This document shows positions 22,696-64,000 of a stretch of 64,000 nt of DNA, one piece after another (the first letter of the stretch is position 1; every line of letters begins with the position of its first letter). The notes under the pieces were generated by a model that saw only the letters and a program-made list of their open reading frames with translations, ran no database searches and was not told the DNA's origin. Position numbers and translations under genes: made by a program. Source of the DNA: Candidatus Woesearchaeota archaeon (GTDB lineage: Archaea; Nanobdellota; Nanobdellia; Woesearchaeales; JACPBO01); NCBI GenBank assembly GCA_016180285.1, contig JACPBO010000005.1:48189-112188 (forward strand). Direction: 5' to 3'.

Positions 22696-22908
22696 TCAAA
22701 ACAACTCTTTAACTGAATTAATTTTCTCAACTGCATTGTTTGCGCCTGTATTTTCCGGCCCGATGACTCCGCAGCCGCCGCCAACTGGCCCGCTCGGTGG
22801 AGCGCTGCCGCTGCCATAATCGCCGCTTGAGCATCCTGCAACAAAAATTAAGCCAACAATCAATAACAACATTAATGCTGTTTTCATATTAGTTTTTTCC
22901 ATTTTCAC
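22696..22908 (-). CDS. Small lipoprotein with internal PVGGGCG motif
   Basis: Lipobox LIFVAGC followed by a Gly/Ser-rich stretch and VGGGCGV. Confidence 0.4.
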   Translation of the reverse strand: MKMEKTNMKTALMLLLIVGLIFVAGCSSGDYGSGSAPPSGPVGGGCGVIGPENTGANNAVEKINSVKELF

Positions 22909-22911
22909 ACC

Positions 22912-23112
22912 TCAACATCCGCCTACCATTCCGCTGGATGAGCTTGCTGCTGGCGCAGATGCTGCTGCACCTGAAGATGTTGCAGTTGCGCCTGAAACTG
23001 CAGCTGTTCCGCTGCTCAGCTTTGTTTTTATTGTGTTCAGCTCAAATGCCTGCACAACTGATACGAGCAATAAAACGCCCAATACAATTGCTATTATTAT
23101 GTTTTTGTCCAT
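22912..23112 (-). CDS. Small secreted protein ending in MVGGC-COOH (paralog family member 1)
   Basis: Signal peptide with predicted cleavage after VQA, an Ala/Ser/Thr-rich linker and the C-terminus SSSSGMVGGC directly before the stop. The stop codon was verified on the reverse strand. Confidence 0.45.
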   Translation of the reverse strand: MDKNIIIAIVLGVLLLVSVVQAFELNTIKTKLSSGTAAVSGATATSSGAAASAPAASSSSGMVGGC

Positions 23113-23140
23113 TTTTTACCTCCTCGATTATTCTTTAACT

Positions 23141-23434
23141 TCATTTTACTTTTTTAATCAATTTAACCAATAAATAAACAATCAAAACCAAAACAGCCAA
23201 ATACAAAACCTGTCCAATTAAGTATAAGCTGCTATAGCCGCCCATGTAGCCGGCAGTAATTGAATTTCCTGCCATCATTGAGCTGCCTAAATCGCTTACA
23301 GCCATGCCTGTTGCAGCTGGAGCCCCACTAGCTGCCTCGCTGTGATTATCCATTCCAGCGCATGCCAAAACCGGCAACGCAGTTAATGATAGCGCTAATA
23401 AAAAAAGCACAATCAATAAAAAGGACTTTTTCAT
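23141..23434 (-). CDS. Small Met-rich protein with signal peptide/lipobox-like N-terminus and C-terminal transmembrane anchor
   Basis: VLACAGMDNHSEAASGAPAATGMAVSDLGSSMMAGNSITAGYMGG followed by a transmembrane segment. Confidence 0.4.
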   Translation of the reverse strand: MKKSFLLIVLFLLALSLTALPVLACAGMDNHSEAASGAPAATGMAVSDLGSSMMAGNSITAGYMGGYSSLYLIGQVLYLAVLVLIVYLLVKLIKKVK

Positions 23435-23707
23435 TTAGCAGCCACCCACCATTGTTGGCGCGACAGATCCTGAACTGCTGCTTTGCCCGATTCTCGCAGG
23501 AATAGTTCCATGCATTTCATAATTCATTTTTTCGTTCTCTGTCCATCCTGTTGTGTCGAGCTTGCCGCTTGCTGCGGCGCTTACGCCTGTTGCAAGGCCT
23601 GCTGCAGGCACCTTGGACCTGATATCCATCAATTGGAATGCCTGAATAAACGAAACTATCAGGATAGCTGACAGAAAGACAACAATTATTGTTATTTTTT
23701 TGTCCAT
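23435..23707 (-). CDS. Small secreted protein ending in MVGGC-COOH (paralog family member 2); start taken at MDKKITII
   Basis: Its N-terminus is homologous to that of the 22912..23112 protein (MDKxIxI..VL..L.VS..QAF.L). C-terminus SSSSGSVAPTMVGGC. The ATG lies 1 nt after the stop of the upstream gene. Confidence 0.45.
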   Translation of the reverse strand: MDKKITIIVVFLSAILIVSFIQAFQLMDIRSKVPAAGLATGVSAAASGKLDTTGWTENEKMNYEMHGTIPARIGQSSSSGSVAPTMVGGC

Positions 23708-23708
23708 C

Positions 23709-24422
23709 TTAACAACCTCCAACCATTGCCCCGCCAGATGATGTTGCTCCTTTTTCTATTCCCCTGTATTTGTTTGATGCCAAATTGATGTAATTCAGCT
23801 CAATTCCCTTGGACTGCAATATCGCAGCTTTCTGCGTCATTATGCCGGGGAAAAACAATGTTTTCCATTTTCCAAGCTCTTCCAAAATCTCGTCATTTGT
23901 GAATTCACTTGGATGCTTGCTTACCAAATATTTTGCCAATCCGCGCATTGCACCGCTGTGGGCGCAGCCGCATGCAGCAGCCCCATTTTTAAAGATAATT
24001 GCCTCAGCTCCGCAGCAGTATTCGCAGCTTATCTGCGTGCCAACAGCTATATAGCGCTGCAAAGCATCCCCTGTTAATGTAATTGATCTATCATAAACGC
24101 TCATCTTATTTATCGCTGCATTCGCCTTTCTTGCATCATTCGGAGAAATATCATCATAGCTTAAGCCAAGTTCTGCTCCATAAATCTTTGGAATTCCTGT
24201 CGGAATAACAGAACCCTGCAGATTTGATGAGCTTACTGCTGTGCTGCCGGAGCTTGATGCTGTTGAAATGCCTGTTGCTGCAAATCTAGATCCAATGCTC
24301 GATATCTGCCATTGGTTAAAAATAACAAGCAGAGCGATAACAACTATCAGCCAAATGCTCAATTTGTTTATCGTTTCCTTTAAATTTGCTTTTTTGTTCT
24401 TAGATTCCATTTTTAATTTCAC
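23709..24422 (-). CDS. Membrane-anchored Cys-rich protein ending in MVGGC-COOH (paralog family member 3)
   Basis: Transmembrane anchor, Ser-rich linker, SCEYCCGAEAIIFKNGAAACGCAHSGAMRG and C-terminus KGATSSGGAMVGGC. Confidence 0.45.
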   Translation of the reverse strand: MKLKMESKNKKANLKETINKLSIWLIVVIALLVIFNQWQISSIGSRFAATGISTASSSGSTAVSSSNLQGSVIPTGIPKIYGAELGLSYDDISPNDARKANAAINKMSVYDRSITLTGDALQRYIAVGTQISCEYCCGAEAIIFKNGAAACGCAHSGAMRGLAKYLVSKHPSEFTNDEILEELGKWKTLFFPGIMTQKAAILQSKGIELNYINLASNKYRGIEKGATSSGGAMVGGC

Positions 24423-42908: not shown

Positions 42909-43025
42909 CCCATTTCAAAGTAATTATCTATTGTTTCCATTTCATAATAATAACTAATATATAAAGATTTTGGTGATTTAGCAGATAAATGCAAAGGCGG
43001 GGTATTAAACCATTTTAACAGCATA

Positions 43026-43068
43026 ATTAAATAAATTAAATAAATAAATTAAATAAATCCAGCCAAAC
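43026..43068. repeat. AT microsatellite (aaataaatt)n
   Basis: Tandem units aattaaataaattaaataaataaattaaataaat. Confidence 0.6.
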
Positions 43069-43150
43069 ATGGCTTCGACGGTTTTTGCTATGCAAAAACC
43101 TACTCGGCACCCCGTAAGGGACAACCCCCGCCTCGTCTCGCCATGGCTGG
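43059..43150 (+). ncRNA. GC-rich structured element (candidate small ncRNA or structured 5' leader), unclassified
   Basis: A long-range helix pairs CCAGC..CATGGC (43059-43073) with GCCATG..GCTGG (43140-43150). Inside it are a 9-bp hairpin GGTTTTTGC-tat-GCAAAAACC and a GNRA-type hairpin CCC-GTAA-GGG. Local GC is far above the genome background. Strand is assumed. Confidence 0.2.
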
Positions 43151-43226
43151 ATTGTCACACTGCACATAAAAAACTTCAATTCGCAAAATAAAAACATTTA
43201 TATAGAAACCCCTTATTTCGAACGCT

Positions 43227-43328
43227 ATGAAAAGAAGCTCACGCAGGTGGAAGAAGAAAAGGCAGATGAGATGGAAGTGGCAGCGCAAGAGAATGAAGCG
43301 CGAGAAGAGAAGAAGGGCAAGAAAGTAG
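43227..43328 (+). CDS. rpl41e: 50S ribosomal protein L41e (eL41), 33 aa; below the ORF-track size cutoff
   Basis: MKRSSRRWKKKRQMRWKWQRKRMKREKRRRARK matches the archaeal L41e pattern MKRxxRKWKKKxRMRWKWxKKRxRR. Confidence 0.65.
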   Translation: MKRSSRRWKKKRQMRWKWQRKRMKREKRRRARK

Positions 43329-61934: not shown

Positions 61935-64000
61935 CTATTTGCTGATCTCCACAACCTTCGCCCCAGTCACCCTCACAAGATCCTTTGCCCTCATCTTTAT
62001 TGATTTTGTGTGCATTCCCGCATTGAAGGCGATCTGATCGTTCTCTGTCAGCCTTTTGTCAACATAAACTTTGATGCCGAACAAGTTTCCGAAGGGAGGA
62101 ACTGCTCCGATTGAAACGCCGCTCAATGCTTTAACATCATCTGCATTTGCAAGTGAAACTGCTGATCCAACCACTCTTTTTGCCCTGTCAAGATCAAGCT
62201 CAGTAGCTGCAGAGATAATTAATTGCACAAAATTACTGCCTGCCTTGCAGACAAGCGCCTTTGCTCCCTGCTTCAATTCAGTTCCCCTGGCTTTTGCTGC
62301 TTCTTCTGATGTGTAAACAGGCTTGTGCTCCATTAACTCATAAGTTATATTTTCATTCTTCAGTGTTCCAATTATCCTGTCAAACAATGCATTCTTTTCA
62401 GGAACTTTCACAATATCCAGCTTCAGGCTCAGGTCCTTCAACTGCTCTTCAGAAACTTCAGAAGGAGATCCTTCCATCAAAGATTCAGCAGCTTTATTCT
62501 TTGGAAACGCGATAACTTCCCTTATCGATTCATTTCCAGTCATTAGCGCAGCCAACCTGTCAACGCCAAAAGCAATTCCTCCGTGCGGAGGAGCGCCATA
62601 TTTAAACGCGTCCAGTAAAAAGCCGAACTTGCTCTCTGCTTCTTTTCTTGTAATGCCAAGAACATCAAACATCTTCTGCTGCAGCTCGCTTCTGTGAATT
62701 CTTATTGACCCGCCGCCAATTTCAACTCCGTTAAGCGTCAAGTCATAAGCTTTGGCTTTAACTTTCGAAGGCTCTTTGTCAAGCAATGAAATGTCAGAAT
62801 CTTTTGGCGATGTAAATGGGTGATGAACTGCAACATGCCTCTGCAGGTCTTCATCAAACTCAAGCAATGGAAAATCTGTGACCCATGTAAAATCAAATGT
62901 ATTTGGCTTTATTAAATTTAATTTTTTTGCGAGTTCAGTTCTTAAGAATCCTAATGCGTTATTCACAACAAAATGCTTGTGGTCTGCAACAAACAATAAT
63001 AGATCTCCTTTTTCTGCATTCAATTTTTTAATTAAATCTTTTTGCGTTTTCTCATTGAAATATTTCACAATAGAGCTTTCCATCCCTTTGTCAGCCATCT
63101 TTATCCATGCAAGGCCTTTGGCATCGTAGATCTGGACAAAGCTTATGAAGCCGTCAATGTCGCTTCTTGAAAATTTATCTCCGACAGATTTTACATTGAT
63201 TGCTTTGACACAGCCGCCGGATTTTGTTACATTTTTGAAAACTTCAAAATCAGAATCCTTTGCAATATCACTTACATCAACAAGTTCCAGGCCAAATCTC
63301 AGATCAGGCTTGTCTGAGCCGTACTTGCCCATAGCTTCATCATATGTTATCCTTTTTATAGGAGTTTTGATGTCAATGTTTAAAACATCTTTCCAGACTC
63401 TTTTTATCAGTTCATCCATGATTGCATAAATATCCTCTTCATCAATAAAGCTCATTTCAACATCAATCTGCGTAAACTCCGGCTGCCTGTCTGCACGTAA
63501 ATCTTCATCCCTTAAGCATTTTGCAATCTGCAGATAGCGGTCAAATCCTGCGACCATTAATAACTGCTTGAACAGCTGCGGGCTTTGCGGCAGTGCGTAA
63601 AATTTCCCAGTATGAACTCTTGAGGGAACTAAATAATCCCTTGCGCCTTCCGGAGTTGATTTCGCCAAAAGCGGAGTTTCAATCTCCAGAAATCCTCGCT
63701 CATTAAAGTAATCCCTTACAATCTTGATCATCTTGTGCCTTAGAATTAAGTTCTGCTGCATTACCTGCCTTCTTAAGTCAAGATACCTGTACTTCAATCT
63801 TAAATCTTCATTAACAGGAAGCCTGTCCTCGATTTCAAAAGGAGGGGTTGCTGCTTTGTTCAGCACATTCAATTCATCAATCAAAACTTCTATATCGCCT
63901 GTTACCAGCTTTGCATTTTCCAGCCCTTTGCCCCTGTATCTGACAGTTCCTTTGACTTGGAGAACATCTTCCCTTGACAGATGCTCTGCTTCAGAATGGA
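61935..64000 (-). CDS. aspS: Aspartyl-tRNA synthetase, bacterial type with GAD insertion domain; N-terminal OB-fold region continues beyond right edge
   Basis: Class II motifs (FRNE-like region QIAKCLRDEDLRADRQPEFTQIDVE, GGGSIRIH, GIAFGVDRL) and a GAD domain. The frame stays open upstream of the ORF-track TTG to the window end (…GKGLENAKLVTGDIEVLIDELNVL). Confidence 0.9.
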   Translation of the reverse strand, partial: HSEAEHLSREDVLQVKGTVRYRGKGLENAKLVTGDIEVLIDELNVLNKAATPPFEIEDRLPVNEDLRLKYRYLDLRRQVMQQNLILRHKMIKIVRDYFNERGFLEIETPLLAKSTPEGARDYLVPSRVHTGKFYALPQSPQLFKQLLMVAGFDRYLQIAKCLRDEDLRADRQPEFTQIDVEMSFIDEEDIYAIMDELIKRVWKDVLNIDIKTPIKRITYDEAMGKYGSDKPDLRFGLELVDVSDIAKDSDFEVFKNVTKSGGCVKAINVKSVGDKFSRSDIDGFISFVQIYDAKGLAWIKMADKGMESSIVKYFNEKTQKDLIKKLNAEKGDLLLFVADHKHFVVNNALGFLRTELAKKLNLIKPNTFDFTWVTDFPLLEFDEDLQRHVAVHHPFTSPKDSDISLLDKEPSKVKAKAYDLTLNGVEIGGGSIRIHRSELQQKMFDVLGITRKEAESKFGFLLDAFKYGAPPHGGIAFGVDRLAALMTGNESIREVIAFPKNKAAESLMEGSPSEVSEEQLKDLSLKLDIVKVPEKNALFDRIIGTLKNENITYELMEHKPVYTSEEAAKARGTELKQGAKALVCKAGSNFVQLIISAATELDLDRAKRVVGSAVSLANADDVKALSGVSIGAVPPFGNLFGIKVYVDKRLTENDQIAFNAGMHTKSIKMRAKDLVRVTGAKVVEISK

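Follow-up and report, generated by a model that had tools for sequence, protein, structure and literature searches.

The 33-aa open reading frame at 43227..43328 (+) is a true gene for ribosomal protein L41e, preceded by a GC-rich segment that is a copy of a widespread archaeal structured family of about 100 nt, apparently undescribed so far. The DNA belongs to an AT-rich archaeon of the DPANN group, Woese- or Nanoarchaeota in type. Within the window (the whole 64-kb stretch of DNA analysed), covariance models place this element at 43055..43154. The explanation that we rate best, albeit tentatively and as a whole, is that of two unrelated features lying side by side: a leaderless L41e gene, and a solo copy of a structured archaeal family linked to mobile DNA. 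A slightly more hesitant proposal is that this family may form a previously unrecognised archaeal class of mobile, structure-conserved elements, whose core would be a three-stranded mini-helix, complete in itself and also found capping other unannotated RNAs and hairpins.

The L41e gene and its promoter

The ORF (33 aa plus stop; peptide MKRSSRRWKKKRQMRWKWQRKRMKREKRRRARK) had been assigned to L41e (eL41, aL41/eS32) in the first-pass annotation, and both a phmmer search of the PDB and the ORFs of related genomes bear this out. Residues 1-32 align to the L41e chains of Pyrococcus/Thermococcus (6sw9_0, 9fny_A2 and 6skf_Bk; E about 0.0045-0.01), and the same ORF is found near-identical (MKRSSRRWKKK[GR]QMRWKWQRKR..) in 120 related genome loci, nearly all of them from Woese-, Pace- or Nanoarchaeota MAGs and a few carrying other labels. 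Compared with archaeal eL41, the product has the same length, the same basic composition and the same (R/K)WKKKxxMRWKW core, and it aligns end to end with the chains of solved ribosomes with no notable difference. Pfam and NCBIfam profiles gave no score for the ORF, a consequence of its 33-aa length and biased composition, and an exact-protein look-up of the sequence returned no record. The gene was skipped by annotation because it is short, and it is overlapped by the antisense ORF 43100..43288 (-), at the coordinates that had been reported. That antisense ORF has no Pfam match, nor do three other small ORFs over the region, and it covers two conserved features, the element and L41e, that lie on or are read from the opposite strand; the earlier judgement that it is spurious is therefore upheld.

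A TATA box (TTTATATA) can be read at 43197..43204 (+), 22 nt 5' of the ATG, a position implying that the L41e mRNA is probably leaderless. TATA-like motifs occur at -45..-22 in 88 of 119 related L41e genes (74%), compared with 28/119 in a control window.

A conserved structured element upstream of L41e

The GC content, calculated in 60-nt windows, peaks at 0.65 at 43097-43167, against an average of 0.388 over the 64 kb, which agrees with the original remark that the segment upstream of L41e lies far above background; only five such regions exist in the window. At least two of these, the islands at 22731-22847 and 23543-23625, resemble coding sequence for small Gly/Ala-rich ORFs and have no RNA-family match. 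When folded and compared with dinucleotide shuffles, the element reaches -39.5 kcal/mol on the + strand (z = -4.7) and -44.5 kcal/mol on the - strand (z = -2.9).

Even though nhmmer and blastn with the element found nothing in the 120 L41e loci, a covariance model built from the window copy alone (R1) did detect a homologue among them (L082), so that only the structure-aware model succeeded. A scan with the core pattern described below retrieved at least 120 metagenomic loci, and 100-128 full-length model matches were recovered. The model R2, whose training set of 100 matches includes the window copy, scores this copy at 96.6 bits (E 7e-27) and detects no other in the 64-kb window. The element is present in 1/120 related L41e loci (about 0.87 Mb in total), where it lies ~4.4 kb from L41e; with one copy in the 64-kb window and one in the ~0.87 Mb of related L41e loci, the family is thus not abundant in every genome. 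The contigs carrying it are archaeal and span a GC content from 0.31 to 0.67, and collections of phage, plasmid and viral contigs gave no match. No family of Rfam 15 matches the element, the best local matches having E >1 and scores far below the gathering thresholds, ARAGORN made no tRNA call in the window, and a literature search found no paper on the family. The known small ncRNA family for which an Rfam search of the segment had been suggested was accordingly not found. Of the two observations that were said to count against the element, lack of an Rfam match and lack of conservation, the first was made, yet conservation and covariation are very strong.

The family fold consists of a closing helix with a 4-nt bulge, leading to a three-way junction from which a variable hairpin and a core-capped hairpin extend, with a total length of about 90-115 nt across the family. 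The outer part of the closing helix, P1, pairs 43056..43064 with 43145..43153; both-sided changes are seen at all 9 pairs across homologues, and 96% of cells pair. Next comes the A-rich bulge (AAAC, 43065..43068; alignment A3), whose position is conserved across the family in variants such as AACC, AACA and AUCC, followed by P2, whose 5' strand (AUGGC plus UUCG, 43069..43077) pairs with 43137-43144 and whose UGGC/GCCA portion is conserved. The variable hairpin P3 (43080..43100; 9 bp, UAU loop) covaries at all 9 pairs, with 92% of cells pairing, and has conserved nucleotides of the junction on either side, AC (43078-43079) and U (43101). Finally, P4 (43102..43136) encloses the core by means of a 7-bp helix between 43102-43108 and 43130-43136, to which the GAC/GUC pairing of the single-sequence MFE fold gives way. 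In the window copy this helix contains a tandem U.C/C.U mismatch at 43104-5/43133-4; in the family, its outermost pair (43102/43136) alternates between A-U (47) and G-C (16), while the innermost one, adjoining the core, is always C-G (93).

Over the whole fold, 88.4% of cells pair, compared with 58.4% after shuffling and 36-49% in slid controls, and double-change cells number 947 against 294 after shuffling. Wobble pairs make up ~2% of the family pairs, the helices being almost purely Watson-Crick, and outside the core the counts of G.U and A.C are balanced (79 vs about 69). The family is under selection for its fold rather than for the sequence of its helices, and the covariation check on homologues that had been recommended is strongly positive: family matches and covariation identify the GC-rich segment as a conserved structured element and not a chance feature. 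Of the helices first proposed from the single sequence, two are borne out by covariation in more than 90 distinct homologues: the long-range closing helix and the tri-loop hairpin of 9 bp. The third, described as a GUAA-tetraloop hairpin, stands as a hairpin but not in the tetraloop register, since the core pairs that covary are C3-G13, C4-G12 and C5-G11; in the window copy, a C.A mismatch closes the GUA loop of the core hairpin.

A core with candidate base triples

P4 is capped by an invariant core of 23 nt (CACCCCGUAAGGGACAACCCCCG, 43108..43130), made of a mini-hairpin plus a third strand and searched for with the 23-nt pattern CACCCCGUARGGGRCAWCCCCCG. Core positions 3/13/22 read CGC in 109 sequences, UAU in 8 and GCA in 5, and positions 4/12/21 read CGC in 123 and UAU in 2. 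Placed in a parallel register, the third strand gives 10 double-change cells, a number reached by 0/500 shuffles, whereas the antiparallel register gives 2 double-change cells and 15 mismatches, a poorer fit for which antiparallel pairing was rejected. This three-way covariation in the parallel register points to base triples and indicates that the core would be a 3-4-bp mini-hairpin joined by the third strand. As is required of a major-groove triple helix, the third strand covaries with a Watson-Crick pair in a Hoogsteen-consistent register, in few variants: about 15 variant sequences carry this evidence, possibly representing few independent events, and the primary family matches were picked with the fixed core pattern.

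The same core caps a sister class of larger multi-helix RNAs, which in the + reading are preceded at about 20-30 nt by TATA-like boxes. It also caps plain long hairpins, whose neighbours are the gene of a rolling-circle Rep-like protein and that of an AEP primase carrying a DnaG zinc finger. These sister architectures have no Rfam match either.

Genomic context and mobile DNA

The orientation of the family relative to neighbouring genes is random, and a TATA-like motif is found upstream of 17% (+ reading) or 12% (- reading) of 58 solo copies, with a background of 14% and 74% in the L41e control; random orientation without TATA enrichment argues against a gene with its own promoter. Adjacent copies occur in ~20 pairs, all of them inverted ("+ then -"). 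Among the neighbours, a DDE_Tnp_1 transposase is present in 8 loci (median distance 29 nt), a ~110-aa HTH protein in 5, and a tyrosine recombinase (Xer-like) in 4, while neither Y1/HUH transposases nor integron integrases figure among the 25 commonest neighbour families listed. The family is thus enriched beside or within mobile DNA. A HIT-domain protein considered as a conserved partner was discarded, being present in few loci only. In one IS family, the element is a conserved internal passenger 20-50 nt after the stop codon of the transposase; the three IS copies inspected (L134, L240 and L233) have it between that stop and the terminal repeat, and they differ by compensatory changes in P3. 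Target-site duplications were not detected at solo copies, whose longest flanking direct repeats average 5.5 nt vs 5.26 in controls, and their absence lends no support to cut-and-paste mobility of solo copies. Classification as a MITE was also rejected, because the element lies inside the IS and not at its ends, and target-site duplications do not exceed controls. As part of the explanation favoured above, and with the same reserve, the family seems to behave like mobile or selfish DNA and not like a housekeeping RNA gene.

The window copy lies 60 nt from an IS-end-like motif (GCAGATAAATGCAAAG, 42981..42996, +), at a strain-level synteny break. The motif resembles CAGTAGATAACAAAGTGAA, the terminal repeat of the IS that carries the element internally, and is the sole match in the window vs 0.28 expected, for a pattern defined after the site had been seen; the 99.5%-identical strain contig L129 diverges at 42978, 3 nt from it. 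In many related genomes, a tRNA-Glu occupies the slot upstream of L41e that is held here by the element, and tblastx of the window from 40.0 to 47.2 kb against the L41e loci revealed no synteny.

The working strand and the nature of the folded molecule

In the mechanism that we propose, the element would act in cis as a very stable folded module on a single-stranded nucleic acid. This would most likely be RNA arising from transcriptional read-through, such as a transposase transcript with the module at its 3' end, where the junction plus the triple-stranded cap would stop exonucleases or polymerases. The non-canonical features make the bottom strand the somewhat more probable working strand. 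The C.A found at core positions 6/10 of the top strand in 61 sequences reads G.U on the bottom strand, and the tandem U.C/C.U common on the former becomes tandem G.A on the latter. The bottom-strand triples would read G.G-C, A.A-U and U.C-G, a reading in which the third strand need not change when core position 10 changes, and within the IS this strand is codirectional with the transposase gene. Signs pointing to the top strand are T-runs >=5, which follow 7 copies on + vs 3 on -, T-runs on both strands of the short spacers between paired copies, the upstream TATA-like boxes of the larger sister RNAs, and family folding z-scores that are slightly better on +. T-runs >=4 follow 16/60 copies on each strand; in the window copy, T-runs are absent on +, and - offers nothing beyond TTTATTT repeats. 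None of the attempts at assigning the strand, by G.U vs A.C counts, T-runs, TATA motifs or folding energies, was decisive.

The alternative that survives best, though an unlikely one, is a stand-alone small RNA gene on the + strand, whose product would act in trans, by binding protein or in some other structural role. Its transcription would proceed from the AT-rich upstream region (TTAAATAA at 43027-43034), and adjacent copies would be convergent genes sharing bidirectional terminators. A three-way junction and a conserved, tertiary-looking core are typical of functional RNAs, the larger RNAs with the same core have their upstream TATA-like boxes in this very reading, and the window copy folds with the better z-score on + (-4.7 vs -2.9). 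A TATA-like motif also precedes P1 of this copy by about 27 nt, whereas the 58 solo copies show no TATA enrichment (17% vs 14% background). Likewise, the pairs are always convergent, with T-runs in the spacers of AT-rich pairs, but overlapping pairs have no terminator between them, and the window copy is not followed by a T-run on +. Moreover, wobble pairs are rare, the conserved non-canonical features would be C.A and tandem U.C on this strand, and its triples would require 4-5 consecutive protonated C+.G-C layers, which triplex chemistry makes physically unlikely at neutral pH.

Somewhat less likely still is a - strand ssDNA signal, recognised during replication, priming, transposition or recombination of mobile elements. 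Such a signal would display G.T wobbles, tandem G.A, mini-hairpins of the GCGAAGC type and a purine-motif G.G-C/A.A-T triplex, and inverted pairs would provide each strand with one functional copy. Purine-motif triplexes are stable in DNA with Mg2+ and do without protonation, and the conserved mismatches become DNA-stable motifs on the bottom strand. The helices are nearly pure Watson-Crick, and the rarity of wobbles together with the balance of G.U and A.C is unusual for RNA and fits a DNA-level element, as does the lack of any promoter or orientation preference. Transposases and recombinases are among the neighbours, and the core-capped long hairpins adjoin genes of a rolling-circle Rep-like protein and of an AEP primase with a DnaG zinc finger. 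However, the associated transposase is a DDE enzyme, a type that does not use ssDNA intermediates, and the 25 most frequent neighbour families listed include no Y1/HUH transposase or integron integrase. In addition, a three-way junction closed by a long-range helix is a trait seen more typically in RNA, as are the larger sister architectures, and we know of no DNA element with such an architecture.

Compared with these two, the possibility that the segment is a regulatory 5' leader of the L41e mRNA, as the first-pass annotation had suggested, is very remote. The element does lie 73 nt 5' of the ATG, on the same strand and with no T-run in between, but the gene has its own predicted TATA box (43197-43204) between element and ATG, at a leaderless distance and kept in relatives. 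Besides, 0/120 related L41e loci have the element upstream of L41e, and at least 100 other family members adjoin unrelated genes.

The other identity put forward at that stage, an H/ACA-like guide sRNA, has almost no chance of being correct: the ACA triplet at 43157-43159, 4-7 nt after the closing helix, is not conserved in homologues, some of which carry a U-run at this position (T-run >=4 in 16/60 single copies); the lower helix of 14 bp with only a 4-nt bulge before the three-way junction offers no pseudouridylation pocket 14-16 nt from the ACA; no K-turn or K-loop exists (there is no 3-nt bulge beside tandem G.A on either strand); and no Rfam H/ACA model matches. Further candidates were rejected. 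A tRNA, a split or permuted tRNA and a tRNA intron have no ARAGORN or Rfam match, the inner 66 nt of the element fall short of tRNA length and lack a T-loop, and the bulge geometry does not make the bulge-helix-bulge motif of a tRNA intron. There is no Rfam match at E up to 5-10 to 5S rRNA, SRP RNA, RNase P RNA, hammerhead or other ribozymes, or riboswitches, and no C or D boxes of a C/D box RNA are visible in the element. An ENE-type triple helix was dismissed as well, the core being G/C-based and self-contained, with no U-rich loop or A-tract.

Comparison with known systems

In genomic behaviour, the element resembles REP/BIME/REPIN and ERIC/Correia-type repeats of bacteria, which, like it, are extragenic and multi-copy, selected for their fold with compensatory changes, promoter-less and independent of gene orientation, frequently arranged as adjacent inverted pairs, and linked to transposases; several features by which a REP/BIME-like repeat is recognised (extragenic location, conserved fold, no promoter, orientation independence, inverted pairs) were found in the family. 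However, those repeats are simple imperfect hairpins or bear terminal inverted repeats, and they are lineage-restricted and near-identical within a genome, whereas the element has a three-way junction with an invariant 23-nt core and is shared across archaea. REPs are mobilised by Y1 (RAYT) transposases, whereas the partner of the element is a DDE transposase. Contrary to REP/ERIC/Correia-type repeats, the element is found in the interior of the IS and does not imitate its ends, and neither terminal repeats nor target duplications were found for it.

ENE elements, located at the 3' ends of lncRNAs and of viral and transposable-element RNAs, share with the element the major-groove triples supported by covariation. 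In the IS copies, moreover, the element comes just after the transposase ORF and could likewise protect the 3' end of a mobile-element transcript. Nevertheless, an ENE uses a U-rich internal loop to grip an A-tract or poly(A) tail that is separate from it, forming U.A-U triples, whereas the three strands of the archaeal element are contiguous in a 23-nt hairpin cap, G/C-based and without an A-tract.

The subterminal hairpins of IS200/IS605 and the attC sites of integrons are comparable in being strand-specific, folded and linked to mobile DNA, and in IS608 base triples help to define the cleavage sites. Unlike them, the element has no R/L boxes or GTTRRRY core, its structure is much more elaborate, and its neighbours listed include neither HUH/Y1 transposases nor the integrase IntI. 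If the element works through its bottom strand, its triples would be of the same purine.purine-pyrimidine kind as those of the tRNA core (A9.A23-U12 and G46.G22-C13), although the element has no cloverleaf, T-loop or anticodon arm.

Implications for archaeal mobile elements and annotation

The element defines a large, covariation-supported family without an Rfam entry, widespread in uncultivated archaea, and a ready target for structural and functional work. Natural triple-helix motifs are rare, and most work on them concerns riboswitches and the RNAs of eukaryotes and viruses; with its three-way covariation, the core seems to be a compact example of such a motif, used as one module on several scaffolds. 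Should the bottom strand be the working one, this would be a natural purine-motif intramolecular triplex (G.G-C / A.A-U(T) / U(T).C-G), which would serve mobile elements either as a signal in folded ssDNA or as an RNA cap that resists nucleases. The ties to IS and recombinases suggest that the mobile elements of DPANN archaea carry a structured non-coding passenger, which is relevant to the exchange and control of mobile DNA in these reduced genomes. In practical terms, the 23-nt pattern and the covariance model allow immediate annotation of these elements, which would keep gene callers from predicting spurious ORFs such as 43100..43288. The correction of L41e is routine annotation and confirms that, in DPANN genomes, this gene is one that gene callers overlook systematically.

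As for the AT microsatellite that had been noted next to the element, a short AT-rich tandem repeat is indeed present at 43024..43058 (TRF score 63, period 13, 2.7 copies), although the variation in length suggested for it is not seen, the only other assembly covering the site being identical. The repeat is unremarkable, since the window contains about nine arrays of similar weakness.

The L41e gene and its surroundings

The 33-aa ORF that the first-pass annotation took for ribosomal protein L41e reads from the sequence as 43227..43328 on the plus strand, partly overlapped by an antisense 62-aa ORF at 43100..43288 on the minus strand. Pfam and NCBIfam profiles gave no score for the peptide, and its residues 1-32 align with aL41/eS32 of the Pyrococcus and Thermococcus ribosomes (phmmer against PDB chains, E ~0.005). 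A degenerate DNA pattern encoding RWKKKxxMRWKW, searched in one genome per species, matched at least 120 loci; the matches listed come almost entirely from Woese-, Pace- or Nanoarchaeota MAGs, and almost every locus encodes MKRSSRRWKKK[GR]QMRWKWQRKR... This alignment and the retention of the ORF across at least 120 related loci bear out the assignment: the predicted L41e gene is real and ordinary, and the window belongs, as judged from sequence, to the Woese-/Pace-/Nanoarchaeota group of DPANN.

A TATA-like motif (TTTATATA, 43197-43204, plus strand) ends 22 nt before the L41e ATG and, among the matches listed, such a motif is found at -45..-22 in 88 of 119 related L41e genes versus 28 of 119 in a control window. 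Because of this box and its recurrence, L41e is assigned a predicted promoter of its own, and its mRNA is probably leaderless. The proposal that the structured segment upstream serves as the L41e 5' leader is rejected in view of this predicted promoter.

In many related genomes, the slot directly upstream of L41e is occupied by tRNA-Glu(UUC), a gene that often contains one to three introns; it lies ~100-300 nt upstream in L013, L024, L029, L033, L034, L042, L043, L046, L070 and L074, loci of Woese-, Pace- or Nanoarchaeota. These introns include ones at the T-loop position, and a 16S rRNA gene lies ~0.5-1 kb or less from L41e in several relatives (L012, L020, L033). ARAGORN found no tRNA in the window; as run, it overlooks intron-bearing tRNAs that are detected by the Rfam tRNA model. 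The window element itself shows none of the features of a tRNA.

A large family of structured elements

The window is archaeal and AT-rich (38.8% GC), and the segment upstream of L41e, ~100 nt long (43055..43154), reaches 0.65 over 60 nt. It folds at -39.5 kcal/mol on the plus strand (z -4.7 against shuffles) and at -44.5 kcal/mol on the minus strand (z -2.9). Rfam 15 gave no match in the whole window at gathering thresholds and noise only around the element at E up to 10; with no family match there, the suggested H/ACA-like guide is dismissed. The AT microsatellite reported next to it is present at 43024-43058 (TRF score 63, period 13, 2.7 copies) but weak; the 64 kb contain about nine arrays of this kind, this one included, and it is judged trivial.

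The element occurs once in the 64 kb, and a plain sequence search with it against the 120 related L41e loci listed returned nothing. A covariance model of the single window sequence (R1) retrieved one homologue, L082:18-104 in a Woesearchaeota MAG, 4.4 kb from its own L41e. Both copies have in common the core CACCCCGUARGGGRCARCCCCCG, and a scan of metagenome contigs with CACCCCGTANGGGNCANCCCCCG yielded at least 120 loci, while none was found in the viral contigs scanned for the core pattern. Among the core-pattern matches listed, most share the window element's complete architecture, and the closing helices of L135, L165 and L157 are nearly the same as its own. R1 aligned 100 copies (alignment A3) and a second model, R2, aligned 128 (A5). 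The family has no entry in Rfam 15, and no description of it was found in the searchable literature. The segment had been annotated as structured, and rightly so, since it beats shuffles on both strands and its family covaries strongly: the element is real and a member of a large family.

Consensus fold

Numbering the element from window position 43055, the closing helix P1 pairs 2-10 with 91-99 and is followed by an A-rich 4-nt bulge (11-14), P2a (15-19 with 86-90, with conserved UGGC/GCCA) and P2b (20-23 with 83-85). A junction AC (24-25) leads to the variable hairpin P3 (26-46) and a junction U (47) to P4 (48-54 with 76-82), which surrounds the invariant 23-nt core (54-76). Across 93 distinct sequences, standard pairs fill 88.4% of cells, versus 58.4% in shuffles and 36-49% with the partners slid; double-change cells number 947 versus 294 shuffled, and both sides change in 35 of 38 pairs. 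The outermost P4 pair alternates between A-U (47) and G-C (16), even though the outer P4 pairs were absent from R1. Because their pairs covary, the closing helix and the 9-bp tri-loop hairpin first proposed from the sequence are right, whereas the register of the "GUAA tetraloop" is wrong by the covariation consensus. The GAC/GUC pairing of the MFE fold likewise differs from this consensus and was rejected.

A putative triple-stranded cap

The core is numbered C1 A2 C3 C4 C5 C6 G7 U8 A9 R10 G11 G12 G13 R14 C15 A16 W17 C18-C22 G23. Positions 3/13/22 are CGC in 109 copies, UAU in 8 and GCA in 5; positions 4/12/21 are CGC in 123 and UAU in 2; positions 6/10/19 are CAC in 61, CGC in 54 and CUC in 8. 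For pairs 3-13 and 4-12 the sum of positions is constant, and they therefore form an antiparallel Watson-Crick hairpin; for 13-22 and 12-21 the difference is constant, and the third strand is therefore parallel. This parallel register has 10 double-change cells, a number reached by 0 of 500 shuffles. The best antiparallel register explains only 2 and makes 15 mismatches. We read the core as putative base triples, in which the 3' strand would fill the groove of a mini-hairpin, closed by C1-G23 atop P4. The covariation involves few variants, the informative ones being copies retrieved by the models, as primary matches were ascertained with a fixed core.

Association with mobile DNA

The carriers of the element are archaea, on contigs of 0.31 to 0.67 GC; nearby genes include ribosomal protein L15e, RFC, class I LysRS, DtdA, the proteasome alpha subunit and FKBP26, as well as intron-bearing tRNAs. 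A DDE_Tnp_1 transposase adjoins the element in 8 loci (median distance 29 nt), a ~110-aa HTH protein in 5 and a Xer-like tyrosine recombinase in 4; apart from these recurrent neighbours, the closest ORFs are diverse. In one DDE_Tnp_1 IS family (L134:1325-2700, L240:115-1500, L233:15-1390, L149, L160, L174), the element is carried internally, lying between one end of the IS and the stop codon of the transposase. The order in L134, L240 and L233 is terminal repeat CAGTAGATAACAAAGTGAA, 26 nt, element, ~20 nt and transposase stop on the other strand, with a matching inverted repeat beyond the transposase start; P3 differences among these three are compensatory. L160 and L174 have a second terminal-repeat type, ACAGTATCTCCG. 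No target-site duplications were found around element copies.

As for the window copy, L129, a contig of a different sample, matches the upstream PKD-domain gene at 99.5% identity and diverges completely at 42978, 77 nt upstream of the element, continuing into unrelated sequence with the start of a cytidylyltransferase-like ORF. Three other assemblies end at 43262, within L41e, suggesting a strain-variable segment of ~284 nt (42978-43262) that holds the element. An IS-terminal-repeat-like sequence, GCAGATAAATGCAAAG, lies in the right orientation at 42981-42996, the sole window match (0.28 expected) to a pattern defined after the site was seen. The strain break, the assembly breaks and this motif suggest that the copy arrived with mobile DNA, and we infer that it took the place of tRNA-Glu, the usual neighbour of L41e. 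The best-supported reading makes the element a structured module linked to mobile DNA, in which selection preserves the three-way junction and the triple-stranded cap.

Working strand and working form

Element orientation is random relative to adjacent genes. About 20 adjacent pairs of elements are all arranged plus then minus, some overlapping by 6-19 nt, and the two elements of a pair are distinct variants rather than inverted duplicates.

We lean towards the bottom strand as the working one. On it, the top-strand C.A at core 6/10 becomes G.U, the tandem U.C of P4 and the P3 tips becomes tandem sheared G.A, and the triples read G.G-C, A.A-U and U.C-G; the third strand would then contact the invariant G, accounting for the fact that core position 19 does not follow position 10. 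Within the IS, it also runs in the direction of the transposase gene. The top strand has in its favour T-runs of at least 5 after 7 copies (3 on the minus strand), TATA-like boxes upstream of a larger sister class, and a slightly better mean folding z (-4.2 vs -3.75); short pair spacers carry T-runs too, on both strands. However, the MFE is lower on the minus strand in 46 of 50 copies, and the top strand would need four or five stacked C+.G-C triples, which would be unlikely at neutral pH.

RNA from read-through transcription is slightly favoured as the working form, given the complex fold and the larger architectures with the same core. Single-stranded DNA is an unlikelier candidate; in favour of a DNA-level role are wobble in only ~2% of pairs, balanced G.U and A.C counts outside the core and no promoter signal: TATA motifs are not enriched on either side of the element (17% and 12%, vs 14% background and 74% in the L41e control).

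Related architectures and other observations

The 23-nt core also occurs on other scaffolds, none of them in Rfam. It forms a hairpin tip in at least three unannotated architectures that resemble structured RNAs (among them an RNA class of ~165 nt and two further classes), which span ~130-200 nt and are closed by long-range helices: L136:10230-10480, L177:880-1103, L226:1-170, L203 and L205; L143:7690-7900, L164, L168, L209, L236 and L244; and L179:12350-12520 and L246. Plain long hairpins capped by it are found on higher-GC contigs (L235:8140-8193, L218:1176-1244, L131/L234, L172), two of which have as neighbours a rolling-circle Rep-like gene and an AEP primase carrying a DnaG zinc finger.

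A sister element (L165:1600-1735) adjoins the L165 copy in inverted orientation, keeping the P1/bulge/P2/P3 scaffold but differing in its P4 arm, where the core is missing. A second recurrent mini-motif (top strand CUCGCUUCGCUCG, bottom strand CGAGCGAAGCGAG) is found at the P3 tips of many members (L165:1521-1540, L170, L199 and L202 among others) and in classes a and b; it folds as a 2-bp hairpin with a tri-loop, next to a 2x2 internal loop of UC/UC (or GA/GA), and covaries from G-C to A-U.

Elsewhere in the window, 22700-23720 on the minus strand holds a run of small Gly/Ala/Ser-rich ORFs. These have hydrophobic stretches at their N-termini and GGAGG ribosome-binding sites, and they raise local GC up to 78% in a genome of 39%. 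A bacterial-type aspartyl-tRNA synthetase with a GAD domain lies at 61935-63884 on the minus strand, its C-terminus fused to a YbaK-like aminoacyl-tRNA editing domain.
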